From positions 91,229 to 155,228 of IMG/VR virus record IMGVR_UViG_3300032236_001530: a stretch of 64,000 nucleotides of DNA, one strand, 5' to 3'. Positions 1,491-37,947 of this stretch are shown piece after piece. Numbering within the stretch: position 1 is the first letter of the stretch; each line of letters opens with the position of its first letter. Both the position numbers and the translations under genes were made by a program. The notes under the pieces were generated by a model that saw only the letters and a program-made list of their open reading frames with translations, was not told the DNA's origin and did no database searches. This DNA is from a virus.

Positions 1491-2168
1491 GTGAGAGAAT
1501 CTTTTACGGAATATAAAAAAACATTAGAACAAAATCTAATGAACATCAGTTATTTATATAACGGTGATGTTATTTCGTCTATAGATTCTAGCTATACTGA
1601 AATTAAAAACTCACCTCTCACATCACCGAGTTTTATGATTAATAGTATAGTTAACATATATCAAGAAAGCTTTGATATAATGGTTGGTAAGTCTAAAGAG
1701 TTTGTGATACCAGAAGAATCTATAGCTGGCTTAGGTAAACAAGGAAATCTATTTGATAAAATATCTGAATTAGGTATAAAAGCAAATTATATTTTTTGTT
1801 CTGATAAAGGTAAAAAGTTATTTGGTTTGAGTAGCAACTTCTCAACAAATACAAGTGCTTTCCCATCATACTTTTATAGTATAGACAAGTATGTTGGTCT
1901 AAATATAGAAGTATTTAATTCACCTCTTATAAAAGAAGACAGTGATGAAATGGTTCTGTATGTTTTTGATAGGTCTATACAGAGTTTAGTATATTCTATA
2001 CAAAATATGGAGTATTCTATTGTTCCAAATGATAAAGATAACTTTGAGTGGAATCACACAATAAGTTATAAATTATATGATTGTAAATTCAACTCATATA
2101 AATTATCAATAAGAAATGTCTCTCGATTGAGGCACGATAAAATTAATAAAATATTAGATGGTAATTGA
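1491..2168 (+). CDS. Hypothetical protein with weak similarity to a capsid A-domain segment; C-terminal RHDKINKIL motif
   Basis: ANYIFCS...VGLNIEVFNSP resembles the gp23 NFIIAS...GKYRVYIDQ region. Confidence 0.55.
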   Translation: MRESFTEYKKTLEQNLMNISYLYNGDVISSIDSSYTEIKNSPLTSPSFMINSIVNIYQESFDIMVGKSKEFVIPEESIAGLGKQGNLFDKISELGIKANYIFCSDKGKKLFGLSSNFSTNTSAFPSYFYSIDKYVGLNIEVFNSPLIKEDSDEMVLYVFDRSIQSLVYSIQNMEYSIVPNDKDNFEWNHTISYKLYDCKFNSYKLSIRNVSRLRHDKINKILDGN

Positions 2169-2544
2169 TTTGTCAGATATACCTTTTGTTCATTCCGGTA
2201 GTTATCGAGACGAGTGTAGAGTAAAAGGTAATAAACTACTAACTGAGCTTAATAGAATAAATATTAATATGTCAACTAAACATAATTATATAATCATACC
2301 GGTTAGTATTTATAATCTTTTAGAGATAAATGATAGTTTTATATCTTTAGAAAAGTCCGCTAATACATATGATGGTCCAATTAAAGTTGGCTTGATTGGT
2401 GAGTTTATTTGCTATTTAGATATACATTTACCGCCAAATGAAATTATTGTTTCTTGGGATAGACAAACATCAAGAAATGTTAAATTAGATTCTATATTAA
2501 ATGATACATTTGAAAAAGAAAAAAGAATTAAGGTTATATCTTAA
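2158..2544 (+). CDS. Small protein resembling an isolated gp23-type capsid A-domain; RNVKLDSIL motif near C-terminus
   Basis: NKLLTELNR..HNYIIIPVSIYNLL..KVGLIGEFICYLDIHLPPNEIIV. Confidence 0.5.
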   Translation: MVIDLSDIPFVHSGSYRDECRVKGNKLLTELNRININMSTKHNYIIIPVSIYNLLEINDSFISLEKSANTYDGPIKVGLIGEFICYLDIHLPPNEIIVSWDRQTSRNVKLDSILNDTFEKEKRIKVIS

Positions 2545-4394
2545 TTCTTTTTGTTTATATAGCTTTCAAATTTTGCTATTATTTTCTTGTTTACATTATC
2601 TATAGTCATTAAACTCTTTCTATCTGGTTTCATGCCTTTTGTAGCACCAGCCTTTAAGAATTCATCTCTTGTCACAGGTACTGGTTGTCCAGTCTTTTTA
2701 TCAACTATATTATATTCAAAGTTTTCATTTGTGTCTTGTCCTAATAATTCAACACCTTTTGTGTCGTATTCAACTTCACCACCTTGGTTAGCTATATCTA
2801 TTTTTGATTTTAATACATTAACAAAATCTTTAGCAACTGTTTTAAGAACATCAACATACTTTTCAGTATTATAAGCTATTTTAAGAGCTGGTTTATTATA
2901 CTTTAAGAAGTTGAAACCAGAGATATTTGTAATTGAAGGGTGACCACCTGAGTTTCTAATAATAAGTTCCCATGCAGGTATTTTGATATTACTTAAATAT
3001 GTTTTTTGGTCAGGAGCTAAATCACTAAACGAAACATCCATATACTCTCTCAACTCTGGATTGTTAATATCAACATTAACAATTTTACCATCTTTCTTCT
3101 CATACATACAATCTTTGTAAAAAGCTTCTAAATCAGTCCATCTAAACCCAACACCTTCATAATCCTCACCTTCTGCTTTTTGCATTGCTTTCCAATCTTG
3201 AGATGTTTCAAATTCTTTTTTAAGAGATTCTAATGAAACATAAAATCTTTTTAATACTGATTCATGTTTTGCTAAAACTTCTTTAGCTATTTCACCTAAG
3301 TTAATTTCTTTTAACTTCTTTTCTTTGAATGGATTACAAGAAACTTGTAATAACCCCATTGGCCAAGCAATACAGTTAAAGTCAGCCTCTGGGTTGTTTT
3401 TGAATACCACATATCTATCATATGAACCAGCTTTAATCATATTACCACCACCATATTGAGTAACGATTTTATAATCAGAGTCAAAGTTAACACCTTTGCC
3501 AATTTTAGCGCCAGTTGATAATAGATTTTTATGTCTCCAATTTGTTGGATCATATTCGGTCACATCACCTGTATTTGGATCTTCAATGAAACTATAATTC
3601 TTCATTCTATCAATGTAAGAGTTTAAGTTATCTGTAATTTCTTCAGGTGTTGCTAATCTTCCTAATTTATCAGAAGTTTTAGCATTACTAATATAATGTT
3701 TAATGTTGTTAAACATTGAGTATAAACTACCTGTAGAATCCAAAGTTAAACATTCAAGAATATTTTTATTAATATGATTTCTCTTACCATCTAAAGATTT
3801 AACAGTGATTCTTTTATTTTTATAAGCCAATAATAATCTATTAACTACAAAACCCATCATAAATCTATTCTTAGCTGGTGTTTCAGCTCTATCTTGTGTA
3901 AAGATTGCTTTTTGTACATCTTCTGGTTTGATATTATATGTTAAAAAGTTAGCTGAGTCAACTGTTTTAATTAGTTCAATATCTTGAGGTGTAAAAATAT
4001 CAGAGTATGATATTTCACCAGAAAGTATCTCAACATTTGAACGAGCATGTTTGAAGTATGTTGATTTAGTATCTTCAGCACCAACTTGTTTATCATGATG
4101 ATCTGATTGAATGTGGAACATTGGCTTACCGTGAGCAAAGTCAACTAGCACACAAAGGTTACCCTCTTGGTGATGCTTAATAGCGTATTCTAAACCACCA
4201 TATTGTATAATATGACAATCAACAGTTTCTATTTGATAGTAATTCTTTAAGAATTCTTTCATAGCAATAGCTGATGTAACACCATCTAAGTCTTTGTGGA
4301 AATAAATCTCTGCAGTTTTATGAAGCTTTGCTATCTTAGAAATGTTTTTAAGACCTACTTCCTCGTTTAGGAAATTTTGATATTTTTTTATCAT
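2541..4394 (-). CDS. DHH/DHHA1-family phosphoesterase with N-terminal CTS-like peptide
   Basis: HKDLDG, VDF, SDHH and C-terminal GGH motifs; starts MIKKYQNFLNEE. Confidence 0.8.
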   Translation of the reverse strand: MIKKYQNFLNEEVGLKNISKIAKLHKTAEIYFHKDLDGVTSAIAMKEFLKNYYQIETVDCHIIQYGGLEYAIKHHQEGNLCVLVDFAHGKPMFHIQSDHHDKQVGAEDTKSTYFKHARSNVEILSGEISYSDIFTPQDIELIKTVDSANFLTYNIKPEDVQKAIFTQDRAETPAKNRFMMGFVVNRLLLAYKNKRITVKSLDGKRNHINKNILECLTLDSTGSLYSMFNNIKHYISNAKTSDKLGRLATPEEITDNLNSYIDRMKNYSFIEDPNTGDVTEYDPTNWRHKNLLSTGAKIGKGVNFDSDYKIVTQYGGGNMIKAGSYDRYVVFKNNPEADFNCIAWPMGLLQVSCNPFKEKKLKEINLGEIAKEVLAKHESVLKRFYVSLESLKKEFETSQDWKAMQKAEGEDYEGVGFRWTDLEAFYKDCMYEKKDGKIVNVDINNPELREYMDVSFSDLAPDQKTYLSNIKIPAWELIIRNSGGHPSITNISGFNFLKYNKPALKIAYNTEKYVDVLKTVAKDFVNVLKSKIDIANQGGEVEYDTKGVELLGQDTNENFEYNIVDKKTGQPVPVTRDEFLKAGATKGMKPDRKSLMTIDNVNKKIIAKFESYINKKN

Positions 4395-4395
4395 A

Positions 4396-4809
4396 TTATT
4401 TTATATAATTTTGATCTGTTTTTCTATATATTAATATATTCAAGTGTTTATTTTCAATGTATTCTTTATGTATATAATAACCTAAATCATCTAATCTTAG
4501 TGATGCAACTTCCATTATTTCTTTATACTCTTCAGAGTTTTTCAAATTGGTAAGTTCATTATTTATTTTCCAAAGACTCTCTTGAAAAGGTCCCCAGTTT
4601 TTACCAATACTAATTTGAATGTAAGTAATTAAAGCAAATTTTAATGCTGATTCATCGGTGTTTTTAAAATCAAATAGTTTTTTTAAAAATCTAACATCAA
4701 CTATCCAACCGTTATCTGATATATCAGTGAATAAAAATTCAATATCTTCAGGTGTTAACTTAGATTCAGGTGATAGATGTATATTTTCAAACTTTTTTAA
4801 GTATTTCAT
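4396..4809 (-). CDS. Hypothetical protein with CTS-like N-terminus
   Basis: Starts MKYLKKFEN. Confidence 0.7.
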   Translation of the reverse strand: MKYLKKFENIHLSPESKLTPEDIEFLFTDISDNGWIVDVRFLKKLFDFKNTDESALKFALITYIQISIGKNWGPFQESLWKINNELTNLKNSEEYKEIMEVASLRLDDLGYYIHKEYIENKHLNILIYRKTDQNYIK

Positions 4810-6203
4810 TATTTCTTACCAAGCAATCCTTTTCCATAACCTTTTATAGTTCCTTTGGTTTCACCTTTAGTCTCGGTGTCAAATTTCGTATCAAAGAAGT
4901 TATTATTATCTGTAACTATTTTAACATCAGCATCCATAGTAGCATAAGGTCCTAATTTACCTGAACGATAAACACCACCAAACATATCACCATTCAAGTA
5001 ACCTTCCATAAAGTAACAACCTGTTAAATCAGAAGATTCTACTTTACAATTAAGAACTTTTGAGTTTTGTGCTGACGATTGTTGTAATTTACATTTTGTC
5101 ATTTGTGAGTTTTTAATCTCTGACCCTACAAAAAAGCAATCTTCAAATATACCCTCAACTTGACAATTTATTAAATCATATCCTTTTAGTGTTGATGTTG
5201 ATTTTATTTTAGCATCAACTATTTCCATTGTTTGTGTTGATGTTACATAGTTTACTATACATTCTTTTAATTCAGATGTTGAATCTATTAAGTTATAGAG
5301 TTTTGAGTATATACTATTATAATATGATGTTACCATATCATAGTTCATATTTTGGTCAATTTGTAATTGAATGGTTGGAAAGTCTATAATAAAGTTATCA
5401 TACTTTGAGAAATTTTTAAATGTAGAAATATTCTTTTCTAAATGTTCTTCAAGTTTATTAACATCCTCCGCATTAAAATCAACATCAATTGCGTCATAAA
5501 CATTAATGATAAATCTGTCCATGAAGTAAATTAAATTACCTATATTCTTTTCATAATCCTTACCACCAACATATCTTAATTCAAGTCTTTGAGAGTCCTT
5601 ATCGTTATTAATATGTAAGAAGTTGATACCGTAGTATTTATCATTTGGTGTTCTTAAATTATTCTTTACAACACTAATTGGGATATTAAAGAAGTCATAT
5701 TCTTTATAAGGAATCATTTTCTTTACTGACTTAGCGTAAACATTATCTTTTCTTGATGGGTAAACTCTATAAATTTCTTCTTCATCAGTATTTAGAATCA
5801 GTTTAAGAATATTCAAATCATTTAGATTCTTATCATCATCATTAAATGATAAGTTAAAGTGAATAGATGATTTTTCATTAGTTTGACCATGTGTTTGAAT
5901 AAATTTAACTATTTTAACTAAATAGTATTTAGCATCATAGTAGCTTAATGGACCAGTTACTAACTCAACCATGTTTGAACCACCTGATAAATCCGGTTCA
6001 ATTTTGAAATTCTTTTCATCTGGTGTGAAACCAGAGTGGTATTCTCTAAATCCCCAAACTTTCACAGGTGCTAACTCTTGGTTTAATAACTCCATTGCTT
6101 TATAGAAAGATAATTCTTTCATATAAAATTCAAATTCAAAGCCAACACGAGCATGCTTTAATTTATTTGATTGGTTTAGAAATTTATCCGAATACTTCTT
6201 CAT
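4809..6203 (-). CDS. Putative amidoligase (COOH-NH2 ligase type) with C-terminal beta-helix-like repeats
   Basis: GFEFEF, EPDLSG..MVELVTGPL, SIHFNLS, KYYGIN, ELRY motifs; I/L-x-x-C/S pentapeptide-like tail. Confidence 0.75.
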   Translation of the reverse strand: MKKYSDKFLNQSNKLKHARVGFEFEFYMKELSFYKAMELLNQELAPVKVWGFREYHSGFTPDEKNFKIEPDLSGGSNMVELVTGPLSYYDAKYYLVKIVKFIQTHGQTNEKSSIHFNLSFNDDDKNLNDLNILKLILNTDEEEIYRVYPSRKDNVYAKSVKKMIPYKEYDFFNIPISVVKNNLRTPNDKYYGINFLHINNDKDSQRLELRYVGGKDYEKNIGNLIYFMDRFIINVYDAIDVDFNAEDVNKLEEHLEKNISTFKNFSKYDNFIIDFPTIQLQIDQNMNYDMVTSYYNSIYSKLYNLIDSTSELKECIVNYVTSTQTMEIVDAKIKSTSTLKGYDLINCQVEGIFEDCFFVGSEIKNSQMTKCKLQQSSAQNSKVLNCKVESSDLTGCYFMEGYLNGDMFGGVYRSGKLGPYATMDADVKIVTDNNNFFDTKFDTETKGETKGTIKGYGKGLLGKK

Positions 6204-6209
6204 ATTACT

Positions 6210-6220
6210 TATATATTAAA
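6210..6220 (-). promoter_or_regulatory. Putative late promoter TTTAATATATA (representative copy)
   Basis: 6 nt upstream of ATG 6203; about 20 similar copies upstream of genes in the window. Confidence 0.75.
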
Positions 6221-6700: not shown

Positions 6701-6703
6701 TAG

Positions 6704-11235: not shown

Positions 11236-12846
11236 ATGAAATTTAGATATGACAAAGAAAAAGAAGAAATAGTTGTATCTGAGGCCACAAGAATTGAATA
11301 TCATCAATTAGGTCTTTGGTTAACACGACATGTAAAGGGGTATAGATATATGCCCGCCTTTAAGATGGGTGTGTGGAATGGTCAACAATCTTATTTCAAA
11401 AATGGTCGTATCAACTTAGGTCTTTGGAAAGAAGCAATGAGAGGTTGTAAAGAAATTGATGCTCCTTTTATTTTAGAAAACAAAGATGACTTTCCTCTAA
11501 ATAGAGATGTTACTTTAGAAGGTGTTAGAGAATTTTGTAAAGAGTATTTTAAAACACATAAAGTAAGAACTAAGTCAGGTGAGTGGGTTCCATTTATGCC
11601 GTATGACCACCAAATTGAATCAGCATATAAAATATTAAAAAATAGATACTGTATGGCTGAGGTTGCTACATCAGGTGGTAAATCTCTAATCATATCAATT
11701 GTTATTTTTTACACACTTAAAAATATAAACCCTAAGGCTAAATTTTTAATTATAGTTCCTTCTATTACACTAGTAACTCAATTTTATGATAATATTGTAG
11801 AATATAATATGGGTGTTAATAATATCTTAGAGATGAGAGAAAAGAAAATAGATCATATCTTAAATGATTCTCACTTACCTTGCGATATTAGAATTGAAGA
11901 AGTAATGTCCGAAAGACCTCGTAAGTGGTCTGGTACATTAGATGCTAATGTTTATATTGGTACTTATCAATCTTTGGAGAAATGGCCCAAAGAGTTCTTC
12001 AAACAATTTCACACAGTTGTTACTGATGAGGCTCATGGTGCTAAAGCAAAAACAATAACAACTATTTTAGGTCATACTTTTCATTCAGCTTACTCAAGAT
12101 TTGGTGTTTCTGGTACATTTCCTGAAGAAAACACTTGTGAGATACTAACCATTCAATCTGTTTTAGGTCCTAAGATTACTGAGGTATCTGCTATGGAACT
12201 TAAAGAAAAAGGTATTATCACTCCAATGGATGTTCGTGTTGTTATTATGAATCATGAGGACTTAGAATTTGACGATAGAATGACTCAAATAAGAAAAGGT
12301 GGTTATGGTAAAGAAGCCTTTGAATTGGAAAAAGATTACATACATCAATCCGGTAAAAGATTAGAATTTATTAAGAAGATTGTTAATAAATGTGATTCTA
12401 ATACTCTTTTATTATTTCATACTATTGAGTATGGTCAACAAATATTTAATACCTTGAGTAAGGATTTAACCGATAAAGAGTTTTATTATATTGATGGTGA
12501 GATATCGGGTAAGAAAAGAGAAGAGATTAAGAAACTAATGGAAGTAACTGATGGTAAAGTTAAAGTACTTGTTGCTTCTTATGGCACTTTATCAACCGGT
12601 GTTTCTATCAATGCTATCTTTAATGTAATATTTGCCGACTCATTCAAATCAGAACAAATTATAATTCAATCAATAGGTCGTGCATTACGTTTACATGATG
12701 ATAAAAAGAAAGCAAATATCTTTGACCTTGTTGATGTTTTCTCAAGTAGGGAGATGTCTAATATACTTTACAAACATTTTAAGGAACGTGAGAAGTTCTA
12801 TATCAAGAGAGGATATCCATATAAAATAATTAAAGTTAATATTTAA
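11236..12846 (+). CDS. uvsW: UvsW-like SF2 DNA helicase
   Basis: WNG N-terminal segment, ATSGGKS, DEAH, SGT, STGVSI, QSIGRALR. Confidence 0.9.
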   Translation: MKFRYDKEKEEIVVSEATRIEYHQLGLWLTRHVKGYRYMPAFKMGVWNGQQSYFKNGRINLGLWKEAMRGCKEIDAPFILENKDDFPLNRDVTLEGVREFCKEYFKTHKVRTKSGEWVPFMPYDHQIESAYKILKNRYCMAEVATSGGKSLIISIVIFYTLKNINPKAKFLIIVPSITLVTQFYDNIVEYNMGVNNILEMREKKIDHILNDSHLPCDIRIEEVMSERPRKWSGTLDANVYIGTYQSLEKWPKEFFKQFHTVVTDEAHGAKAKTITTILGHTFHSAYSRFGVSGTFPEENTCEILTIQSVLGPKITEVSAMELKEKGIITPMDVRVVIMNHEDLEFDDRMTQIRKGGYGKEAFELEKDYIHQSGKRLEFIKKIVNKCDSNTLLLFHTIEYGQQIFNTLSKDLTDKEFYYIDGEISGKKREEIKKLMEVTDGKVKVLVASYGTLSTGVSINAIFNVIFADSFKSEQIIIQSIGRALRLHDDKKKANIFDLVDVFSSREMSNILYKHFKEREKFYIKRGYPYKIIKVNI

Positions 12847-21543: not shown

Positions 21544-21975
21544 CTATTTCTCGTTTAAGATTTGATTTATTATTTGTTCTCTTTTCATTAATGGATCTTC
21601 TACAAAAACGCCTCTAATCATATAGGATTGATTTTGAGAAATATTTGGCGCATTAGAAACAACATCGTTTGTAATCATAATGTTATACAGTACAAAGAAA
21701 TTATTGGGATTATTAGACATTAATATCTTAAAATCACCAATTGTGTCACATTTGTACGATAAACAAGTATAATTTCTTCCTTTGAACTCAAATGCTGGTG
21801 ATTCAGATATGAAATAAACTCTATCTTCTATATAATTAGCTATTTCAAACAAAATAGATGGTTCAATTACAGATTGAAAGGGTGAAAAATTCATACTATT
21901 TGATGTCTTTTTACAAACTTCTTCATTTATTTTTACAACTCTTTCTTCTTTAGTTAAATGTGAAACTTGTATCAT
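21544..21975 (-). CDS. Hypothetical protein, C-terminal REQIINQIL motif
   Basis: Directly downstream of clpP. Confidence 0.65.
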   Translation of the reverse strand: MIQVSHLTKEERVVKINEEVCKKTSNSMNFSPFQSVIEPSILFEIANYIEDRVYFISESPAFEFKGRNYTCLSYKCDTIGDFKILMSNNPNNFFVLYNIMITNDVVSNAPNISQNQSYMIRGVFVEDPLMKREQIINQILNEK

Positions 21976-21977: not shown

Positions 21978-22634
21978 TTATTTTCTTTTTATCACGATAT
22001 CATCAATCATCCCGTACTTCTTAGCATCAACCGCAGTCATCCAATAGTCTCTATCACCGTCCTTACTAACTCTATCATAAGGTTGACCAGTTCTTTCGGA
22101 AATTATTTCATATAATTCCTTCTTTAATGAGTTGATTTCTTTAGCTTCAATTTCCATGTCAGAAGCTTGCTGCATCCAACCACCAAAACCTAAAGGTTGG
22201 TGAATCATCGTTCTACTTCTTTTAAGTGCTTTTCTTTTTCCTTTAGCCCCTGCGCATAAAATAACAGCTCCCATAGATGCTGCTAGACCAGTATTAATTG
22301 TTACAATATCTGGTGTTACATATTCCATAACATCTAAAAGACCTAAACCAGAGTAAACTGACCCACCAGGTGAGTCTATATAAATTTTAATATCTTCGTC
22401 ACTTTCACTTTCTAAATAAAGTAGTTGAGCTTTGATGATGTTACATACATCCGAATCAATCTCATCGGATAAAAAAATGATTCTATCATCTAATAATTTT
22501 GAAAAGATATCTACTGGTAACCCATTAGATTCTATGAGATGTGAATTTACACTCTTTTTATTTAACTTTCTAAAGTAGTCATCTATCTTTGTCCCACTAA
22601 TACTTTGCATTGCATATTTTCTAAAATCATTCAT
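21978..22634 (-). CDS. clpP: ATP-dependent Clp protease proteolytic subunit
   Basis: DIFSKLLDDRIIFL, YIDSPGGSV, GLAASMG, MIHQP, DRDYWM. Confidence 0.95.
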   Translation of the reverse strand: MNDFRKYAMQSISGTKIDDYFRKLNKKSVNSHLIESNGLPVDIFSKLLDDRIIFLSDEIDSDVCNIIKAQLLYLESESDEDIKIYIDSPGGSVYSGLGLLDVMEYVTPDIVTINTGLAASMGAVILCAGAKGKRKALKRSRTMIHQPLGFGGWMQQASDMEIEAKEINSLKKELYEIISERTGQPYDRVSKDGDRDYWMTAVDAKKYGMIDDIVIKRK

Positions 22635-24235: not shown

Positions 24236-26182
24236 TTAGTTTGATACTAATGTTACTGTTATTGGTGATCCAGCTGTAAATGGTGCTCCTGCAGTTTGTA
24301 TTTGTGTAGCACCTGTCATTATAAATTGACCTAGGTTTTGGTAACCCGATGTGTATATTATATTAGCAGCAGGTACCGTATAGATAGCTGAATGTCCTCC
24401 TTGTGTCAATGTTAATGTACCACCATTAGCATCCATGGATGTTAAAACAGATGAAGCATCCGCACTATACATATCATAGCCAAATAGTGAGATATTATAT
24501 GGAGCTCTTACACCATTTTCTGTTCTAAAGTCTGGATTCAATGTATTGACATATCCTATACCTGTAGCCCCATTTTTATTCATAGTCATTTTACCAGCTG
24601 AATTAGGTGTAGTTAATGAGCCACTTTCAGTACCTGATAATAGATAAGTAAATGTTCCAGATGATGCACCACCTCCGCCACCAGAAGCAGATATTATTAT
24701 ATTTAAGTCAATTGATAGTCCATATGTGAATGGAGTTGAAGCACTAGCAACCATAGTAGCATTTTGAGTTGGTATAGCAAGGTAGGATTGAGTTCCAGAT
24801 CCACCAACACTTGCAATGTTTTGTCCAAGTGTATAAACAGCTTGATTTGAACCTTGAGCTATGGATATTGTACCACCATTTGATTTTAAATTATTAAATT
24901 GTGTTGTGTAATCTGTTCCATTATTTCCTATAACATTAAAGTAAAGATTATTATTAGCACCACCAGATATTTTATTTGGACTAAATGTGTTGTAAGAACT
25001 GTATGTACCACCATTGACTACAAATATAGCATTGCTTTTATTAATAGGTGGACCTACTGTTATAATACCCTCAGTTGATTGATAGAAGAACCAAGAACCT
25101 GTAGCACCAGACGAACCACTAGAACCTGATGATCCACTAGATCCCGACGAGCCACTAGATCCTGATGATCCAGCTGAGCCACCAATATGTAGCGTCATTG
25201 ACCCATAGTTAGAACCAGTTCCCCAATGGTAAACATAATCACCATTTGTTACTCCTAGGTCAGATAGTGTTTTATTATTAAATGTTGTGCTACCTGAAAT
25301 TACACCACTTGTATAACCAGTTGGTACAACTAAATATCTATTACTACTAGTAAGCCCATCACCAATCAAACCAAATCCACTTCCCGAACCAGTAGAACCA
25401 CCCATTCCAGAACCTGTACCAAAACTAAATGTACCTAGTGATGGTCCTGTGTATCTATCAACATTATACCAAGATCCACTATAGAATGTTCCTGTGTCAG
25501 GTCCTATACCTCCTTGACCGATTGGAATATTATCAATATATGTTAAATCACCAAGATTAAAACTACCGGTACCTATTAAAATAACATCAGATCCTATTTG
25601 AGTTAATGTTATTATAAAACTAGATGTACCACCTGAACCACTAGATCCTGAAGATCCGCTTGATCCGGAAGATCCACTTGATCCGGAAGATCCTGAAGAT
25701 CCACTTGAACCACTTGATCCGGATGTACCTGAACTACCTGAAGTACCGGATGAACCACTTGAACCACTAGATCCTGAAGATCCGCTTGAACCAGAAGATC
25801 CGCTTGATCCAAGATTTAAGAGTCCAAAATTACCACTATTATTTAGCCAATTTTTTGCTGAATTGATATCAAGAAATGATTGAGTATTACCTGGTAATCT
25901 ATTGATTAGTTCTAATAAAGCAGCATCTGTTTTACCTTTACTTCTAAAAAATGTAGGTTTATAAGCTAATGCTGTGGAATTTCCATTACCAGCTGGTCTA
26001 CCATATAGATTTGTTGAACTTGTATCAGAGTAAATTACATATCCTGCGTCATCACTAACACCTCCATACCAACCACCAGTTGTATAGTCAACTTGTCCTA
26101 TAGCAATAGCTAAGGTTCCTATTTGTGTAGCCCCTGGTATATAAGTACCACTTGGGTTATATTTTACATCATATATAGCCAT
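24236..26182 (-). CDS. Virion surface/fibre-like protein with (GSS)n linkers
   Basis: Two Gly-Ser-Ser tracts (about 25629-25810 and 25099-25180) separating beta-rich domains; late promoter 26206-26216. Confidence 0.7.
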   Translation of the reverse strand: MAIYDVKYNPSGTYIPGATQIGTLAIAIGQVDYTTGGWYGGVSDDAGYVIYSDTSSTNLYGRPAGNGNSTALAYKPTFFRSKGKTDAALLELINRLPGNTQSFLDINSAKNWLNNSGNFGLLNLGSSGSSGSSGSSGSSGSSGSSGTSGSSGTSGSSGSSGSSGSSGSSGSSGSSGSSGSSGSGGTSSFIITLTQIGSDVILIGTGSFNLGDLTYIDNIPIGQGGIGPDTGTFYSGSWYNVDRYTGPSLGTFSFGTGSGMGGSTGSGSGFGLIGDGLTSSNRYLVVPTGYTSGVISGSTTFNNKTLSDLGVTNGDYVYHWGTGSNYGSMTLHIGGSAGSSGSSGSSGSSGSSGSSGSSGATGSWFFYQSTEGIITVGPPINKSNAIFVVNGGTYSSYNTFSPNKISGGANNNLYFNVIGNNGTDYTTQFNNLKSNGGTISIAQGSNQAVYTLGQNIASVGGSGTQSYLAIPTQNATMVASASTPFTYGLSIDLNIIISASGGGGGASSGTFTYLLSGTESGSLTTPNSAGKMTMNKNGATGIGYVNTLNPDFRTENGVRAPYNISLFGYDMYSADASSVLTSMDANGGTLTLTQGGHSAIYTVPAANIIYTSGYQNLGQFIMTGATQIQTAGAPFTAGSPITVTLVSN

Positions 26183-26241: not shown

Positions 26242-28104
26242 ATGAAATTTTTATCAAGCTACTTAGATTTTATTTTTGAGGCGGTCACTAAACAAGAAAT
26301 GAGACTTTATTTCTCAGATGAGTTTAGAGATATGTTGAGAAGATTTCAAGATAAATCAAGTATTGCACAAGCTTTATTAAGCTCAGAAGATTCTAATCAA
26401 ATGACTGATGTCTATACTCTAATAGATATCACTGAAAAGAATGATACAATTTCATTAATACAAGTAAATAGAATAACCAGAGCCAATCCCGAATTAGGCG
26501 AAACATTACCATATAACATTCGTAATAAGAAAAGAGGAAGTGAATTTTGGACTAAAGCAAGAACTGAAATAGGTATTGGTAGATGGGTTAGAAGAATATT
26601 TACCGAAGTTCATAAATCAACTATACTGGATTCTAAAATTGAAGAGTTTGTTAATTTATACAAGGCGGCCTTTGATGGTGGTGATGTATCAAGGTTTGAA
26701 TTGGTTAGTGGAGAGGATATTAGAAAATGGTATTATGAGAATAATTATGAGGAAAAAAGAGGTCAATTAGGAAACTCTTGTATGAGGTACTTTAGTTGTC
26801 AAAGTTATTTTGATATTTATGTTAAAAATCCTGAAGTTTGTAAATTACTTATTTTAAAATCTGAAAGTGAACCAAATAAAATTACAGGTAGAGCTTTGGT
26901 ATGGAAGTTAATAGATGGATCTTATTATATGGATAGAATCTATACTATAAATGATTCTGATAGATTTCTATTTAAAGACTATGCAAAGAAAAACAATATT
27001 GAGAACTTACACGAAGATAAATTTGATATCACTGTTCAATTAGGGGATCATACATACACTAAATATCCATATATGGATACCTTTGTTGTTTATAATCCAA
27101 AAACTAAAATTTTAAAAGATGATGAGGATTTATGGCCTAATAATGGTTATATTAAACTACAAAGCACGAATGGTGGATTTTCCTCTGATGATGTTGTTTA
27201 TTCAGAATGGCATGGTGAATATATCAATAGACAAAATGCGGTTTATTGTAGTAATGTCGAGGATTGGTTAGACAGAGATGAAGCAAAATATTTAGAATAT
27301 AAAGATATATGGGTAGCACCAAATGATGATGTTGTTTACTCAGAATACCACTCAGAGTATTTCCTTATGGATGATACTGTTTATTCTGATTTAATGAATG
27401 ATACACTATATCCAGATAGTAAAGATGTTATAGATATACAAATTAATTCAGATGGTGATACAGATTGGGGTGTTAAATCAAGAACCGATCTTTATATAAT
27501 AGGATGGGTAGATGAAAGACCTAGATATTACCTAAGAGAAAACTATATTAAAAATCCTTTTACTGGTGAATATCATTTCAAAGATGAAGATATAGATGGT
27601 GTTAAATTTAGTAATTATTTAGATAAAAAAATAGCTGAGAAATTAGATATTGTATTAGATGATAAAAACACTGATAGAAATGGTAAACCACATGATTCAT
27701 TGGTTCAAAAAGTAAGAGTAGAATTAAAAAATCTAATGAAAGATTTTGAAATCACAGACAATATAAAAGAAGCTATTGATAACAATAATATTTGGAATAA
27801 TAGTGTTAGAAATGTTTTTTGGGGATTACATAAAGATAATATGCCAACTGAAGAAGATATGTTTTTGGTAATTAAAGCTTATCCAACAATCTATCCTATG
27901 TCTAATCCATATGTACAATTTATGAGTTTAACTTGGAATAAACTTATGACAACAATAATTGAAGACTTTTCAGGAAGTGAAAAGAAGTTCAATATATTTA
28001 AATCAGAAGGTATATTAAGAAATATGACTAAAGCCGCTTATATCTTTGACTATTCTTTATTTCCTGAAGAAATTTATCTTAGATACTTATTTATCACTAT
28101 CTAA
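26242..28104 (+). CDS. Conserved phage protein (SCM/GRALVW/MDRIY/YPYMDT family) with CTS-like N-terminus; paralog of 44151
   Basis: Shared motifs with 44151..45281; ATG 26242 lies 6 nt after TTAATATATA. Confidence 0.75.
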   Translation: MKFLSSYLDFIFEAVTKQEMRLYFSDEFRDMLRRFQDKSSIAQALLSSEDSNQMTDVYTLIDITEKNDTISLIQVNRITRANPELGETLPYNIRNKKRGSEFWTKARTEIGIGRWVRRIFTEVHKSTILDSKIEEFVNLYKAAFDGGDVSRFELVSGEDIRKWYYENNYEEKRGQLGNSCMRYFSCQSYFDIYVKNPEVCKLLILKSESEPNKITGRALVWKLIDGSYYMDRIYTINDSDRFLFKDYAKKNNIENLHEDKFDITVQLGDHTYTKYPYMDTFVVYNPKTKILKDDEDLWPNNGYIKLQSTNGGFSSDDVVYSEWHGEYINRQNAVYCSNVEDWLDRDEAKYLEYKDIWVAPNDDVVYSEYHSEYFLMDDTVYSDLMNDTLYPDSKDVIDIQINSDGDTDWGVKSRTDLYIIGWVDERPRYYLRENYIKNPFTGEYHFKDEDIDGVKFSNYLDKKIAEKLDIVLDDKNTDRNGKPHDSLVQKVRVELKNLMKDFEITDNIKEAIDNNNIWNNSVRNVFWGLHKDNMPTEEDMFLVIKAYPTIYPMSNPYVQFMSLTWNKLMTTIIEDFSGSEKKFNIFKSEGILRNMTKAAYIFDYSLFPEEIYLRYLFITI

Positions 28105-28425
28105 TATATCATCAAGTTTCTTAGCTCTAACTTCTTGAGTGGTGTTATTAGAGCCTGTTTCCCATTTTACTTTATATTCTTGAATGAACTTTTTAGCATC
28201 TTCCAAATTTTTATATTCTTTACCATGTCTAGCAATACTATCAAAAGTTGCTTCTTGCATATAATCACATAACTCAGATGTTAATTTGAGACTATTATTA
28301 TTGGTATTACCATATGAAATAACATAGTACTTCCATTCTACTCTTGTAGTTGAGAATATACCATAAACACCTATGTTTGAATGGTCTTTTATTTTTTCCT
28401 CGTATAAAAATCTACCTTTTTGCAT
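28087..28425 (-). CDS. Hypothetical protein, C-terminal RAKKLDDIL motif
   Basis: Translationally coupled to the upstream ORF. Confidence 0.65.
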   Translation of the reverse strand: MQKGRFLYEEKIKDHSNIGVYGIFSTTRVEWKYYVISYGNTNNNSLKLTSELCDYMQEATFDSIARHGKEYKNLEDAKKFIQEYKVKWETGSNNTTQEVRAKKLDDILDSDK

Positions 28426-28661
28426 TATTTTATAAATTGATCTATTTTAATATCTCTTTCGATTGCTTGTTGATTCATATGATACCACCTACGAAAATCA
28501 TGAGAGTAATAAATGAATTCTTTTACTGTACCATCTTCGTTAGTTTCGGCTTGACAAGCTTGACCCATTATAAATTGATTCCAACTTTCTTTCCAGATTT
28601 CCGGAATATCAGAGTCTCTAACGTTTCTACCTTCCTCATAAACTTGTCTTAAATTTTTCAT
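28425..28661 (-). CDS. Hypothetical protein, C-terminal RDIKIDQFI motif
   Basis: ATG at 28661, 3 nt after a TATATTTG box. Confidence 0.65.
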   Translation of the reverse strand: MKNLRQVYEEGRNVRDSDIPEIWKESWNQFIMGQACQAETNEDGTVKEFIYYSHDFRRWYHMNQQAIERDIKIDQFIK

Positions 28662-28664
28662 ATA

Positions 28665-28672
28665 CAAATATA
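28665..28672 (-). promoter_or_regulatory. Bacteroidota-type -7 promoter box TATATTTG
   Basis: Matches TAnnTTTG; also at 37952, 41358, 44075, 50207 and 54172. Confidence 0.65.
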
Positions 28673-29584
28673 CTAATTTATTTCAATATTTAATATTTTA
28701 AATATTTTGTTTTTCTTTTTATATGATATTCTTATTAGCTTAATATCATTTTCTAAACACCAATTACTCTTAATATCATCATTTATTTTTATTCTTTTTA
28801 GTGTCAATTCACCACCAAATATTTCAGACGGTCTATAGTGTAGTTCACCATCATATTCTATACATATTTTATAATCAGGTAAATAGAAATCAAATGGTAA
28901 CTCTTTGATATTTTTACAAGTTTCAAATTTCTTTTCTCTTATATAACTAATTGAATTTTTATCTAGAAATTCTTTTATCTTTTTTTCACCAAATGATTTT
29001 CTATTAGTTTCACATCCTAAAAAATCCACATATCCTTTCCAATTGTCTCTATAGACATAATCGGGTCTTTTGGGTAAAAACTCTATATTATTATCTTCTA
29101 TGTAATTTATATACTCAGATTGTTGTGTAAATTTTATATCATTTATAAATTTTTTAGCTTCCTCATATGTTAAAAATAAATTACGTTTATGTATAGGTGG
29201 TGTCTTTTTAATAGATAAGAAATTCTGCCAACCCTCCCATTTATTTTGCTTTTTATAAACATGATCTGGTCTATTTGGTATTTTTTTATCAATATTTACT
29301 TTAGTGAACTCATAAAAGTCTCCCCTATTGCTAAATTTCATCTCACTAATTATTGATTTACAATACTCATAATCATAATACTCTCTATTATTATAACTTT
29401 CAATACCTGAATCTAACCAATCTGACAGTGATACCCATTCATTTTTATAATATACATTAGGATTTGATGGAATTTTATAAATCTTTGACTTACCCTTTAT
29501 CCAATTATCCCATTCTTTTTTACTTTTTAATCTTTGTTTTCTGACAACTTTTCTAGCATCTTTGAATAACAAATACATAAACAA
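28673..29584 (-). mobile_element. Putative homing endonuclease: tandem helical repeats plus Vsr/DUF559-like PD-(D/E)XK domain
   Basis: Three repeats of the type YEEAK..P.RPD.VY...W.GW..FL; SFGEKKI..PFDFYLP..CIEYDGELHY. Confidence 0.7.
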
Positions 29585-31651: not shown

Positions 31652-32125
31652 TTAGATGAATTTATTTTTTAACTTTCTATACTTTTTATTCTTTAATGTT
31701 AAATATTCATCAAAGTCTAAGTTTCCGCGTTCATTATTACAATCTTTACAACAAACAACTAAGTTCACTTGTGTATTATTACCACCTTTTGAAATTGGAA
31801 TTATGTGGTCAGCCGTAGCGTTTTCTTTATCTAACTCTATATCACAATAGATACAATTAGCACCTATATTATCATCTAAGAAATCTTTAGCAAAGCCACT
31901 AGTTCTTCTTTTAACGTTTTTACCATTGTATTTAAGTCCTATAACAACAAAATCTTCCATAACCTTATACTTCTTACGGAATATTTCACAAGACTTGTAA
32001 TTTTTATTTAACCCAACCACTAATTTGATTAAAAATCCCCATCTAAAATAAGTTTCTTTATCAACTGATAAGAAGTGTGGGTGTTCGGCTTTGTATATAA
32101 ATTTTAATATTTTAATCAATCTCAT
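31652..32125 (-). CDS. HNH endonuclease (McrA-like)
   Basis: CIYC..ATADHIIPISKGG..NLVVCCKDCNNERG. Confidence 0.85.
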   Translation of the reverse strand: MRLIKILKFIYKAEHPHFLSVDKETYFRWGFLIKLVVGLNKNYKSCEIFRKKYKVMEDFVVIGLKYNGKNVKRRTSGFAKDFLDDNIGANCIYCDIELDKENATADHIIPISKGGNNTQVNLVVCCKDCNNERGNLDFDEYLTLKNKKYRKLKNKFI

Positions 32126-33121: not shown

Positions 33122-33166
33122 AATAATAATATTATTTTTTGTATATTATAGATAGTATATATTAAA

Positions 33167-33670
33167 TTATAAATCTTTATTTTTTTCACTTTCTAATTCA
33201 CCTACAACATAATCTAAAAATGAATCTAATTCATATTCCAGGCCATTACAAAACTCAAACACATCATATGATTCTTCATTTGGTTTTTTAGACACTGAAT
33301 AAAAATCTGGTGATATTTGATTACTATTAAAAACAACTATTCTACCCTCTAATCTACCTTCAATTCTTTTACCACTTGGGAATACTAAGTCTGGTACATA
33401 CAAAGTGCCTATATAATGCACCTCATCACCATAATCTTCTGTTTCGGTGTGTTCAAATTTGAAATATCCATTATCATCTTCAAATACTCTCTCACTTTCA
33501 TCAACAATCATCTTATTATGAACTTCTTCTTGATTTCCTGACTTATGCGCATTTAGAAAATCTCTTTCATCATCTCGCAATGAAGACATTCCATATTTAG
33601 ATATTTTATCCAATATGTCATCTACTCTTTGTTGAGCTGTATATCCTTCATATCTCATTAGATGTTTCAT
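33167..33670 (-). CDS. Protein with CTS-like start and DUF6576-like helical hairpin
   Basis: MKHLMRYEGY; VDDILDKISKYGMSSLRDDERDFL. Confidence 0.65.
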   Translation of the reverse strand: MKHLMRYEGYTAQQRVDDILDKISKYGMSSLRDDERDFLNAHKSGNQEEVHNKMIVDESERVFEDDNGYFKFEHTETEDYGDEVHYIGTLYVPDLVFPSGKRIEGRLEGRIVVFNSNQISPDFYSVSKKPNEESYDVFEFCNGLEYELDSFLDYVVGELESEKNKDL

Positions 33671-33698
33671 AATAATCATTGATGTATATATTCAATAA

Positions 33699-34112
33699 TC
33701 AATCATCACTTTTTCTAACCTCAATTTTCCAAGCTCCTCCTGATTTTACAACTCTATTGTCATTATATTCTGTTAATTGTAAATATGGTGCTGTCGGTTT
33801 GTAATTATTTATAACTTTCTCTCTAATAGCTTGATATAATATGTCTATGCCAATTCCATCAGCTTGGTAAATACATATGTAATTATTATCTATATCTTCC
33901 CAGTCAAAATCAGAATATTCTGTGTTATTGATAACTGATTTTATTTTATTATCTCTATTATATTTTTGTACTTCTTTTATCCAACTATCCATAAAACAAT
34001 AAATGAACCCATCGGATCCATCTTTACTATGTTTAATTAAAATATCAAAGTCAACACCGTCGTAAAAACGAATGCTTACTCCTTTTTGTTCTACTTCCTC
34101 AATCAAGGTCAT
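33699..34112 (-). CDS. Hypothetical protein (internal RDNKIKSVI motif)
   Basis: Likely start MTLIEE overlapping the upstream ORF. Confidence 0.6.
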   Translation of the reverse strand: MTLIEEVEQKGVSIRFYDGVDFDILIKHSKDGSDGFIYCFMDSWIKEVQKYNRDNKIKSVINNTEYSDFDWEDIDNNYICIYQADGIGIDILYQAIREKVINNYKPTAPYLQLTEYNDNRVVKSGGAWKIEVRKSDD

Positions 34113-34329
34113 CAAATATATCATCAATTTTTTTGTCTCTTACTTCAGACTTATGCAATTCTATGACTTTTTTATGAAAAAGTTCATCATTTTCAAATCT
34201 GTACTTGAAGTCTTCAAATGAACTACTGCTCATTTTTAATAATGCAAGAGATCCTTTTGATATTTTACTCTCATTTAATCTATCATTTAAGTAGTCTATG
34301 TAATAAGGATATATTTCATCATTTTTCAT
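34099..34329 (-). CDS. Hypothetical protein, C-terminal RDKKIDDIF motif
   Basis: 76-aa ORF with AGATATATA upstream. Confidence 0.65.
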   Translation of the reverse strand: MKNDEIYPYYIDYLNDRLNESKISKGSLALLKMSSSSFEDFKYRFENDELFHKKVIELHKSEVRDKKIDDIFDDLD

Positions 34330-34361
34330 AATTTATATATCTACTTTTAATATATACCATT

Positions 34362-35141
34362 ATGATTAAAAAATACTCAAGTTATATTAATGAATCTGAT
34401 GACCAAAGAGTTTATTTAGATGACAACCAAAAAGGCCCAGGCTTTTATACCAATAAATATGGTCCTAATTCTATTGCTAATTTGAATCAGAAGATTTATA
34501 ACTATATTCATCAAGTATATGGTCCTTTAGGATTTTCTTATCCTCGTAAAGGTACTGTAGCTAATTATGATGTAACTGTAAATGGTGAGTTAATAAGTGG
34601 TGAGTATATATCTAAAATGGTTAATAACTACACTATATTCAAAACATTTATTAGAGAGAATAAAATCAAAGATGAAAATACATTTTATACCCTTTTAGAA
34701 TCTAAATTTGATGATGTTTATCACTATAATGGTAGTTTCTTCAAAAGACAGACTTTACCTATTTTAATAAACACAACTAGAAAAGGAAATAGTAACGAAA
34801 TTAGATGTAAACAGAAATTTATTGAATTTGCTAATACAAAAAATCTAAATATAGTTATAACAGATCCTACGGTTGCTGAAGATGTTGATGGTGTAGATGC
34901 TAAGTTTGTACACAATGGTAGAACATTCACTATTCAAATCAAACCATTTAGTGAGTACAAAACTATAGGTGATAAATTATACGCTAAGTCAGCTGGTTCT
35001 TTATCAGTTGGTTCTGTTAATTATTTAATGCTTTATTCAGCTACTGAATATTTAATAATTAAAAATGTATCTACAGACCCAATAAAAATAAAAGGTGATG
35101 TTTTCATCGCCTCTTTATCAAGTGTTATTTATAAAGATTAA
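34362..35141 (+). CDS. PD-(D/E)XK nuclease-like protein with CTS-like N-terminus
   Basis: GNSNE...EDVDGVDAKF...TIQIKP; starts MIKKYSSYINES. Confidence 0.6.
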   Translation: MIKKYSSYINESDDQRVYLDDNQKGPGFYTNKYGPNSIANLNQKIYNYIHQVYGPLGFSYPRKGTVANYDVTVNGELISGEYISKMVNNYTIFKTFIRENKIKDENTFYTLLESKFDDVYHYNGSFFKRQTLPILINTTRKGNSNEIRCKQKFIEFANTKNLNIVITDPTVAEDVDGVDAKFVHNGRTFTIQIKPFSEYKTIGDKLYAKSAGSLSVGSVNYLMLYSATEYLIIKNVSTDPIKIKGDVFIASLSSVIYKD

Positions 35142-36574
35142 AAACCACCTTTCCCACCCATACCTGAGAAAATATCCATCACAACACTCAAACGTTTCGT
35201 GATTTCTGGCATTCCCAATGGTTCAATAATTGAGTTAATAGGTGATAAGATTGATTTATCAAACTGCTCGTCATAATCTATAAGTGGTGCGAACTCCATA
35301 GGATAAGAACCCCTGATATAAGCAAACATATCTGTTACTGATTTATCTTTGCAGCAGTAGTATTTAATTTTAGTACCTGATTTAATGAATTCATACTTTT
35401 GTTGATAATCTTTACTCTTCATTAATAAGTAATTATAGTGAGCCGCTGATTTAACAGCAAAGTGAGCACCGCTAACAAATTGTAAAGGTAAAGATTTATC
35501 ATGCAAGACTTTAGTTTCGTAGTTAGAAACAGAAGACTGCATACAAATATCATCAATATCCGCTAATTCAAACTCTTTTCTTAATCCTTTAACCAACTTT
35601 AACAAGTCTTTAATGTTGAATGTATCTGGATGAGAGAATAGATATTTTACAATACTTACAATTTTATCACGAGCAAATGCTGGTGTTGATGAACGAACTA
35701 GTTCTACACCTTTAGGGAATATATAACCAAGTCTTTCAAATGGAATACCATCTTCAAATAAGATATGTTGAATGTATTTCTTTTTAGCAATTGATATAAT
35801 TGATTCTGATATTCTTTCTAATTCAAAATCTTCTTTATTATCAACTCCAAAAGAAGCAGCATAATCTTCAAGACATTTCTTAAAGTAACCACCGTATCTA
35901 AAATGGTCAAGACCATGAATAAAGTCAAGTTCACAAGACCAATTCCATCTTATCTCTCCAGTGAATGCACCGGAAGAAATCATTTTATTTAATTCTCTAT
36001 CTTTAACAAAGTATCCATCTATTAGAACCACTTCATAATCTAATTTAATCAATTCTTTTAACTCATCAATATTATGAGCTTGACTAACAAAATTAGTATT
36101 ATTGACTTTTATTTCTTCTTTGGAAAGAATAATAAATTTCTTGTCAAATGATTCTAAATAATATTTATTAAAAATAAGATTTTTCCAATCACAATGGTCA
36201 ATAGCTGGTTTAAAAGAAACAAATAACGAGTCAGTATCAGCATAGATACTAACATGTTCTTCTTTTGGTATAGGTGTTACGTTTTTAATTCCTACATTAG
36301 AATGTAGTTCAAAGTCATCTTGCCATTGTTTATACCAATAGTCTTCGTTAACTTTATCCATTGTTTTGGTAAGGTCACGACCTTGAGCCGTAATTGTACC
36401 AGCAACGTGATTATTATATAATATGAAATATGAGGTAGCGAATGCACCATAAGAACCATTAAGTACTAATTTTAACGCAAGTTGTAGTGCGTTATAATAA
36501 TCAACTTCCTTTTTAATATCAGAAGCTTTCTTTTTAAGTAATTCAATCTTTTTTAATTTCTCCTCTTTTGTCAT
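35138..36574 (-). CDS. Family-B DNA polymerase, C-terminal half only (split gp43B-like)
   Basis: QLALKLVLNGSYG (motif B), IT..GR, YADTDS (motif C), KKKY, KGVELVRSSTP; no exonuclease domain or motif A. Confidence 0.9.
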   Translation of the reverse strand: MTKEEKLKKIELLKKKASDIKKEVDYYNALQLALKLVLNGSYGAFATSYFILYNNHVAGTITAQGRDLTKTMDKVNEDYWYKQWQDDFELHSNVGIKNVTPIPKEEHVSIYADTDSLFVSFKPAIDHCDWKNLIFNKYYLESFDKKFIILSKEEIKVNNTNFVSQAHNIDELKELIKLDYEVVLIDGYFVKDRELNKMISSGAFTGEIRWNWSCELDFIHGLDHFRYGGYFKKCLEDYAASFGVDNKEDFELERISESIISIAKKKYIQHILFEDGIPFERLGYIFPKGVELVRSSTPAFARDKIVSIVKYLFSHPDTFNIKDLLKLVKGLRKEFELADIDDICMQSSVSNYETKVLHDKSLPLQFVSGAHFAVKSAAHYNYLLMKSKDYQQKYEFIKSGTKIKYYCCKDKSVTDMFAYIRGSYPMEFAPLIDYDEQFDKSILSPINSIIEPLGMPEITKRLSVVMDIFSGMGGKGGF

Positions 36575-36615
36575 AGTAGAGATTATATTAAAAAAAATTA
36601 ATAAAGTTTGTAGGA

Positions 36616-37146
36616 TTATTTCTTAGAAAAAGGCTTCAACATCATGAGCCATCTACCATTTTCTAACTTTGGAAGTGATTCTGGAACACCACAAGCATCA
36701 ACACCTGCGGCATATTTTAACATAACTAACTCGCCTCTTTCGGGTGAGGCTTTCTGTCTACCTTTAAGTTGTAAAACACATTTGATTTTATCACCATGTT
36801 GTAAAAACTCAATACCTTTTTTAATTTTAGTATTTAAGTCATTATCTGATATTTCAGATGAAAGTTGAATTTCTTTAGTAACTGATTTAACAGAGTTCTT
36901 TTTCTTTTCTTTCTCTGATTTTTCTAAATGGTAAAGAAATTTTTTGTAATCTTCTATTTTTACAATAGGTGGGTTTTGATTCTCGTTAATGAGAATTAAA
37001 TCTAACCCTTGTGATTCTGCTAATTTAGATGCTTCATATGAAGTCATTATTTTTGGTTCATCGTAGAACCCGATTAGCCTTACTTGTGGAAAACGGACAT
37101 CACCGTTAATCTTGTGTCTTGTTGTTTTGTTTCTGTTAATTTTCAT
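36616..37146 (-). CDS. infC: Translation initiation factor IF-3
   Basis: INGDVRFPQVRLI, LDLILI..PPIVKI.DY.KF.Y, KEIQL...I.DNDL.TK, FL..GDKIK..L.LKGRQ. Confidence 0.92.
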   Translation of the reverse strand: MKINRNKTTRHKINGDVRFPQVRLIGFYDEPKIMTSYEASKLAESQGLDLILINENQNPPIVKIEDYKKFLYHLEKSEKEKKKNSVKSVTKEIQLSSEISDNDLNTKIKKGIEFLQHGDKIKCVLQLKGRQKASPERGELVMLKYAAGVDACGVPESLPKLENGRWLMMLKPFSKK

Positions 37147-37186
37147 GTATAAAAAACATGAGTTTTATAATAATAATTAAAAAAGT

Positions 37187-37585
37187 TTATTTAATTTGAT
37201 TTAAAACAGGAACAAATGGCACAACTATTGGTTTTAAAGTATCTTTTGTAGAGGAATCTTTAATTTTTACCGGATGTTGTGTATGTAATAAAGAAGAATC
37301 AAATCTATGAAAGTTATCTTTTTTGATAAGAATTTTAGATGTTGTGTCTGGTTGATTAATATCTTTAATAACCTTGTTCAAAGAGTCTATAATAGAATTT
37401 CTTCTGATAGCGATTTCTTGTGTATTTGATAAATCCTGTCTGATGGTTGTTATCATTTCATGATTATAAGAAATATCATTATATAAATTAGTTATCCAAA
37501 CCGATAAACCTATACATAAAAAAAATAACCAAGAAACTGCACTTCTGTTTCTTTTAAGAGCTTTTCTGTCGTTTCTGCCTAACAT
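37187..37585 (-). CDS. Single-pass membrane protein with periplasmic coiled segment
   Basis: Basic N-terminus, one TM helix, D-S/T-x motifs (DSL, DTT, DTL). Confidence 0.6.
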   Translation of the reverse strand: MLGRNDRKALKRNRSAVSWLFFLCIGLSVWITNLYNDISYNHEMITTIRQDLSNTQEIAIRRNSIIDSLNKVIKDINQPDTTSKILIKKDNFHRFDSSLLHTQHPVKIKDSSTKDTLKPIVVPFVPVLNQIK

Positions 37586-37947
37586 AGTATATTATTAATT
37601 ATTGTTTCTCTATTTTCTAATTTCAAGAAGTTAATAAAATCTTCTAACCACATTTGTTTACCTTCAATTCCACTATCCATTCTAAATCTAAAGTCAGAAG
37701 ACTTGAATAGTTCAAATTTAGATCTTAAGTATTTACCAATATGGTTTGAATATTTAAATGGATCATCTGGATTATCAGAATAGATAAAATCAATCTCATT
37801 AAATCTTTCATCAAATAACATTTGAAATGATGAATGATCAGTTTCCACTAAACATCTTCTTACCTCACGAACTTCTTGGCCACCACCATCATTATAAAAA
37901 ATAGTAGTATTACCTTCCGATATGTGAAATTTGTGTTTATAATCCAT
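37579..37947 (-). CDS. Hypothetical protein, C-terminal RETIINNIL motif
   Basis: TATATTTG box 4 nt upstream of the ATG. Confidence 0.65.
   Translation of the reverse strand: MDYKHKFHISEGNTTIFYNDGGGQEVREVRRCLVETDHSSFQMLFDERFNEIDFIYSDNPDDPFKYSNHIGKYLRSKFELFKSSDFRFRMDSGIEGKQMWLEDFINFLKLENRETIINNILC

Follow-up and report, generated by a model that had tools for sequence, protein, structure and literature searches.

Short terminal peptides that address a protein to its partner are known from Clp proteolysis, in which C-terminal degrons include the ssrA ending LAA-COOH and the ClpX C-motif 2, as in the R-R-K-K-A-I of MuA. In bacteriophage T4 such a role is played by the N-terminal capsid-targeting sequence, which has a prohead-protease-site ending, and by the C-termini of gp43, gp55 and gp33, which bind the gp45 sliding clamp through short, interchangeable, hydrophobic-acidic peptides joined by divergent linkers of variable length (PMC2988020). 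Here a C-terminal tag of the pattern R-x-x-[KI]-[IL]-[DN]-x-[IF]-[LFI] is described on otherwise unrelated small proteins of the IMG/VR virus record IMGVR_UViG_3300032236_001530. The window, positions 91,229 to 155,228 of that record, forms the right-hand end (64 kb) of one viral contig of 155,228 bp with a G+C content of 31%. The tag is shown to be a real, selected and shared peptide signal, and literature searches gave no description of such a tag.

Like the T4 clamp epitopes, its closest precedent as a portable C-terminal epitope, the tag is a short C-terminal peptide common to unrelated proteins, portable, carried on a variable linker and accompanied by T4-like replication genes. It differs from them in its pattern, R-x-x-K-h-x-x-h-h (h, hydrophobic; x, any residue) with conserved basic residues, and in its number, about 40 carriers in 155 kb against three in T4. 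With the T4 capsid-targeting sequence, and with MKYLK-type N-terminal leaders found on other proteins of the contig, it has in common that an address-like peptide is shared by many unrelated proteins of one phage. Unlike the capsid-targeting sequence, however, it is C-terminal or internal and has no protease-site ending, and unlike the MKYLK...FE leaders, with which it is mutually exclusive, it lies behind different promoter-like motifs. The likeness to Clp degrons is that of a short C-terminal signal, basic and then hydrophobic, a subset of tags reading R-x-K-K-[LI]; the tag is longer than these degrons, has helical periodicity, and tolerates 1-15 trailing residues as well as internal positions.

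The first-pass annotation of the window had listed eight of these peptides, seven C-terminal and one internal (RDNKIKSVI), and all eight translate exactly as claimed. They are given below with the open reading frames (ORFs) that carry them, together with an internal tag-like peptide in a helicase gene.

2130-2156, plus strand: RHDKINKIL, ending three residues before the end of the 225-residue ORF 1491-2168
2473-2499, plus strand: RNVKLDSIL, 14 residues before the end of the 128-residue ORF 2158-2544
11836-11862, plus strand: internal tag-like REKKIDHIL, in the UvsW-like helicase ORF 11236-12846
21556-21582, minus strand: REQIINQIL, in the 143-residue ORF 21544-21975, directly downstream of clpP
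28102-28128, minus strand: RAKKLDDIL, in the 112-residue ORF 28087-28425
28431-28457, minus strand: RDIKIDQFI, in the 80-residue ORF 28425-28667
33930-33956, minus strand: internal tag-like RDNKIKSVI, in the middle of the 142-residue ORF 33699-34127
34114-34140, minus strand: RDKKIDDIF with an acidic tail, in the 76-residue ORF 34099-34329, the best-conserved carrier
37585-37611, minus strand: RETIINNIL, in the 122-residue ORF 37579-37947

Enrichment was assessed over the whole 155,228-bp contig in a set of 232 greedily chosen ORFs. The strict pattern given above matched 14 times in this set, and 13 of the matches lay no more than 14 residues from the C-terminus, 12 of them no more than four. 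Against the 13 observed, shuffling predicted 0.017 C-terminal matches when whole proteins were permuted and 0.04 when only the last 30 residues were, and the reversed proteins of the contig gave no C-terminal match to the strict pattern. When the pattern was relaxed to R-x-x-[KQRINS]-[ILV]-x-x-[ILFVM]-[hydrophobic, or G-I/L/V], it was found at the C-terminus of 41 of the 232 ORFs, with 1.1-1.5 expected by shuffling. The excess over an amino-acid-composition-matched background, on which the first-pass annotation had staked the motif, was therefore present even when only tails were shuffled (41 against 1.5). The relaxed tags end 0-4 residues from the C-terminus in 39 of 41 cases and at most one residue from it in 30. 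The seven C-terminal tags of the window, which are followed by 1-14 residues, are the right-hand part of a contig set of about 40.

A profile built from 40 tails gave 43 matches in the contig, all in open frames, and the consensus of the tag reads h-x-E-h-R-[DE]-x-K-[LI]-[NDE]-x-[IL]-[L/F, or G-I]. Arginine occupied position 1 in 35 of 44 C-terminal tails of the K-L-x-x-I-L type compared with 8 of 134 internal ones, and is a real feature rather than an artefact of the regular expression. Altogether 18.5% of the ORFs of the contig, about one protein in five, are tagged. When the tail was removed, the 41 carriers, which range in length from 61 to 225 residues, fell into 39 BLAST groups, two pairs being true paralogs. 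A Pfam scan of 47 carriers from three genomes placed none above a family cut-off, and a PHROG scan of 20 carriers assigned no family, in agreement with the earlier statement that the proteins share nothing else.

The tag is a peptide signal and not a DNA element. Its first arginine is encoded by AGA in 28 cases, CGT in eight, CGA in two and AGG in three, which is close to genome usage, and the codon differs in 51% of tag pairs compared with 37% expected. The tag is also retained where the next gene lies 12-282 nucleotides away or is convergent, and 12 tagged gene ends have no overlapping downstream gene. The varied arginine codons, and the persistence of the tag where no gene overlaps, indicate that selection acts on the protein.

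Relatives of the contig were gathered by searches with one carrier, with ClpP and with a neighbouring gene; the ClpP search yielded 80 related loci. A related-locus search seeded with the 143-residue protein retrieved no relative, and when the query was cut to the last 40 residues of one carrier, the only sequence retrieved was 98% identical. In four ortholog families conservation was higher in the five core columns of the tag than over the remainder of the protein (0.95 against 0.79, 0.80 against 0.68, 0.86 against 0.57 and 0.88 against 0.67). Within the 143-residue family encoded downstream of clpP (14 orthologs, 19-70% identity), R132 and I136 are among only six invariant residues, and two to eight residues follow the tag. 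The tag is the most conserved block of the 76-residue family (19 orthologs), with insertions or deletions of 4-7 residues just before it. The orthologs thus keep the tag, often better than the rest of the protein, in the comparison that the first-pass annotation had set for it alongside enrichment.

The remaining carriers of the window gave a similar picture. In orthologs of the RHDKINKIL carrier the R, the K-I-N and the final L are kept at 73-51% identity, and for the RNVKLDSIL carrier every ortholog has the R and the last L, although overall identity is only 31-39%. RAKKLDDIL is retained in all three homologs of the 112-residue ORF (39-69% identity). Homologs of the 80-residue ORF have R-D-x-K-[IL] in 12 of 12 cases and the full pattern in seven, and the sole homolog of the 122-residue ORF (40% identity) ends in RDKKIEKIL.

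The C-terminal location that had been ascribed to the tag holds for most copies, with the qualification that two conserved copies are internal and that up to 15 residues may trail the motif. The position of RDNKIKSVI is conserved as R-x-x-K-[IL]-x-x-[ILV]-[LIV] in all 16 homologs of its ORF. REKKIDHIL falls within residues 194-235 of the helicase, a stretch of about 42 residues whose counterpart in T4 UvsW (2oca) spans only about 20; the difference, about 22 residues, places the motif in an insertion. Equivalent helicase-sized open frames in two relatives also score with the tag profile. The insertions and deletions before the tag, the variable tails (0-15 residues) and the conserved internal copies are typical of a short linear motif that is flexibly attached.

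The conserved residues R1, K4, L5, I8 and L9 share one helical face. An AlphaFold2 model of the 143-residue carrier is an alpha/beta fold (predicted local distance difference test score, pLDDT, 83) that ends in a helix at residues 128-141, with confidence falling to 70. The model of the 76-residue carrier is a four-helix bundle (pLDDT 91) whose helix 49-73 spans the tag, with pLDDT going from 96 through 78 to 60. With the tag in the terminal helix of both models, the predictions favour the short amphipathic helix suggested in the first-pass annotation. We read the alternative -L-G-I ending as a Gly-capped version of -I-L. A Foldseek search of the PDB with the two models gave nothing below E = 0.3, and the ESM Atlas held no usable match to either carrier. 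The SAP, HeH and Rho_N motifs were considered and rejected: the tag comprises one helix only, has no Pfam match, and spaces its hydrophobic residues at -1, 5, 8 and 10 rather than at -1, 3, 7 and 9.

The tag profile was also run on other genomes. It gave 34 matches in LR745206 (634,780 bp), a published huge phage, and 4-18 matches in each of six other relatives. The largest genomes of Al-Shayeb et al. fall within the Mahaphage clade, which has predicted Bacteroidetes hosts (PMC7162821). The tag marks this clade of huge Bacteroidota phages, to which LR745206 and the phage described here belong. Over whole genomes, tagged ORFs amounted to 9.0% in the relative labelled G311 (436 kb), 8.8% in G306 (597 kb) and 0.4% in G308 (501 kb). 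The tag of G306 has drifted: K4 is lost and an aromatic residue has appeared upstream. The profile at E <= 0.01 misses this variant, and the whole-genome analysis recovers it. Among 301 Bacteroidota genomes the profile gave eight weak matches at E <= 0.05, with about 15 expected by chance, and none was the C-terminal tail of a protein family. A degenerate DNA pattern run on IMG/VR retrieved 44 stretches, about half of them true tags; these were all on AT-rich contigs, the larger of which measured 80-476 kb. The 155-kb contig probably represents only part of a much larger genome. A regular-expression match in an S-adenosylmethionine synthetase of a distant phage was rejected as a chance match.

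As a separate observation, G306 has a family of 95 true paralogs of 138-347 residues (loci L234-L263, for example L235:13719-14417) that accounts for roughly one in ten of its ORFs, most of them arranged in tandem. All members share the C-terminus W-N-D-D-L-[ST]-L-N-x-x-N-F-x-x-L-L-D-E-I-[KNE]-D-G-L-[EKL].

The tagged genes differ in context from those with the MKYLK-type leader. This leader was found on about 25 other proteins of the contig, and the overlap with the C-tagged set was zero (hypergeometric P = 0.007), as had been noted for the window, where no carrier was said to have an N-terminal tag resembling the capsid-targeting sequence. The motif TATATATTAA stands upstream of 9 of 19 tagged operons compared with 16 of 91 others (P = 0.013), other tagged operons have the Bacteroidota TAnnTTTG -7 box, and no tagged operon has the T4 late-promoter sequence TATAAATA in front of it. 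These counts are in keeping with the noted placement of carriers behind host-type or middle-type promoters and weakly support an early or middle class of C-tagged genes distinct from the N-tagged class. Genome-wide, TATATATTAA occurs 10-100 nucleotides upstream of 25 operons, for example the operon 28667-29584 and at 34329, and is a candidate phage-specific promoter element.

We propose that the tag is a short linear docking motif that can be moved between proteins. It would be a capped amphipathic helix, about 10-14 residues long, protruding from the ends of many unrelated accessory proteins that evolve fast and, in a few cases, from a loop. The face formed by R1, K4, L5, I8 and L9 would plug into a groove of one common reader, which would give a class of early or middle orphan proteins (ORFans) a shared fate, whether recruitment, localisation or turnover. 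Taken as a whole, this explanation seems on balance the probable one, and the existence of a single common reader, taken by itself, is likely. Judged from the sequences, a docking or addressing signal to a common partner, as put forward in the first-pass annotation, appears to be the best-supported reading; the link to ClpP that was drawn at the same time is only circumstantial. Most genes of huge phages are ORFans that offer no handle, and a shared tag carried by between one in ten and one in five of the proteins supplies one: it defines a functional class, predicts a single reader and offers a portable tag for the biology of Bacteroidota phages.

The leading but weak candidate for the reader, and one we hold tentatively, is the phage's own Clp machine, the ClpP part of which is encoded in the window.

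21978-22634, minus strand: phage ClpP (PF00574, E = 1.4e-66), a candidate part of the reader

In the Clp version of the docking model the helix would serve as a degron or an adaptor-docking signal and so set the time at which accessory proteins are removed. In about 15 relatives the gene immediately downstream of clpP carries the tag. Three near-complete relatives (G309, G311 and G307; loci L151, L152 and L154) encode a ClpC-like unfoldase of about 710 residues with two AAA modules, a UVR/M-domain and a VGF ClpP-docking loop; it has no Clp_N domain, an acidic, disordered, low-complexity stretch standing in its place. Together with ClpP, this protein gives the three phages a complete Clp protease of their own. 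The ClpC-like gene is not on the 155-kb fragment.

Four points weigh against a Clp reader. G308 has both ClpP and a ClpC-like gene, yet tags are found on only 0.4% of its ORFs. Copies that are internal or followed by a long tail are at odds with a degron whose C-terminus must be free, the conservation of a single face suits a groove better than an unfoldase pore, and conserved carriers that adjoin replication genes would be odd substrates for destruction. A phylogenetic-profile contrast gave 101 proteins of G311 that are present in G306 yet absent from G308, terminase and structural genes among them; G308 is too distant for this contrast to discriminate the reader. Were the reader the Clp machine, the phage would supply the first example of a degron and its protease that are both encoded by a virus and directed at its own proteins. 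An addressing code of the whole Mahaphage clade, in which the helix on 9-18% of proteins would lead to a phage-encoded reader (with the ClpC-like/ClpP degron system as candidate) while MKYLK would route a second class to the capsid, is unlikely in that full form.

The best-surviving alternative to the docking helix as set out above, although rather improbable, is that the tag is a replisome or sliding-clamp docking epitope, a counterpart of the C-termini of T4 gp43, gp55 and gp33 that has spread to dozens of clients. A T4-like replication set is indeed present, with the UvsW-like helicase, whose insertion contains a tag-like motif, and the following gene in the window.

35138-36574, minus strand: family-B DNA polymerase (PolB) fragment of 478 residues (PF00136)

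Carriers of the window lie near PolB and have hydrophobic-acidic tails, and G311 encodes a clamp loader of the gp44 type (Gp44_lid, 28.4 bits) as well as a late sigma factor resembling gp55 (phrog_234). In T4, however, the polymerase and the late sigma factor themselves carry the epitope, whereas here PolB and the G311 gp55-like protein end without the tag, which argues against a clamp epitope of the T4 type. The PolB tail K-R-L-S-V-V-M-D-I-F-x-G-F is conserved in 11 relatives and even in the distant G308, and is absent among the tag-profile matches at E <= 10. No clamp of the gp45 or DnaN type was detected in the contig or in five relatives: PF02916, PF09116 and PF00712 had no match in the contig, and PF02916 and PF00712 none in the five relatives. 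The gp44-like clamp loader in the relatives suggests that a diverged clamp may exist. The tags in early arrays are mostly basic or neutral rather than acidic, and at least 40 clients on one clamp would be unprecedented. The beta-clamp motif QL[SD]LF and the PIP box Qxx[LIM]xx[FY][FY] were rejected as descriptions of the tag: its position 1 is never Gln, its last positions are mostly I or L, and the spacing differs.

Two observations concern these replication and transcription genes themselves. The match of PolB to the Pfam model begins only at position 137 of the model; the gene may therefore be split. The gp55-like gene of G311 (L210:12600-12965, plus strand, 121 residues) matches positions 10-106 of the 181 in the phrog_234 profile and lies near the gp44-like clamp loader and a T4-type terminase.

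Docking onto a hub of the host, such as RNA polymerase, the ribosome, the beta clamp or a protease adaptor, with the tag delivering takeover proteins to it, is improbable. The carriers are small ORFans in tandem early-type arrays, some with TAnnTTTG promoters, as is typical of host-takeover genes, and no phage reader has been identified. No similar helix that the tag could mimic was found in a host protein family, however, the 301 Bacteroidota genomes being at chance level, and the loss of K4 in G306 suggests co-evolution with a fast-evolving partner, which is for that reason probably encoded by the phage.

It is very improbable that the tag has no reader at all, and arose as a by-product of an A-rich next-gene start without a Shine-Dalgarno sequence or of the joints of cassette recombination. 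Gene starts poor in Shine-Dalgarno sequences and rich in A are expected for a Bacteroidota host, and in the contig a Shine-Dalgarno-like site precedes only 6 of 232 genes, the regions upstream of starts being 45-60% A. Most tagged genes run into the next start (ATGA), with an overlap of 1-8 nucleotides. Codon choice within the tag shows a secondary nucleotide effect: Ile8 is ATA in 16 of 20 tags and Leu9 is CTA in 8 of 25, and synonymous diversity is reduced for Leu (0.34 against 0.64), Ile (0.42 against 0.59) and Glu (0 against 0.32). Taken together, the overlap with the downstream start and the reduced diversity of Leu, Ile and Glu codons indicate that the A-rich start region shapes part of the signal. 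The tail-shuffle control (1.5 expected against 41 observed) shows that a nucleotide effect is unable to yield a position-specific motif. Moreover, the codons for the arginine, whose spacing is fixed, differ from one another at two or three bases, and the tag is kept at the 12 non-overlapping gene ends, internally, and across orthologs at 20-40% protein identity. The explanation without a reader is already largely refuted by these controls. Separately, the tag codons that adjoin an overlapping start are skewed to ATA, TTA and GAA.

That the carriers form a single ancient family of paralogs, now recognisable only by its last helix, is scarcely credible: two carrier pairs are true paralogs, and the 95-member family of G306 shows that such expansions occur in the clade, but the 41 carriers form 39 unconnected BLAST groups of widely differing length (61 to 225 residues), the two AlphaFold2 models differ in fold (alpha/beta against helical bundle), and the motif also occurs inside a UvsW-type helicase.

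Other genes recognised in the window are the following.

24236-26182, minus strand: 648-residue protein with collagen-like repeats
31652-32125, minus strand: HNH endonuclease
36616-37146, minus strand: translation initiation factor IF3 (IF3_N and IF3_C domains)
39908-41338, minus strand: nicotinamide phosphoribosyltransferase (NAMPT_N and NAPRTase)

The last part of the window, positions 60001-64000, reaches a G+C content of 45% and, at the end of the contig, a GC skew of +0.28. Its minus-strand ORFs include one of 717 residues and three smaller ones with repetitive ends rich in His, Gln and Tyr.

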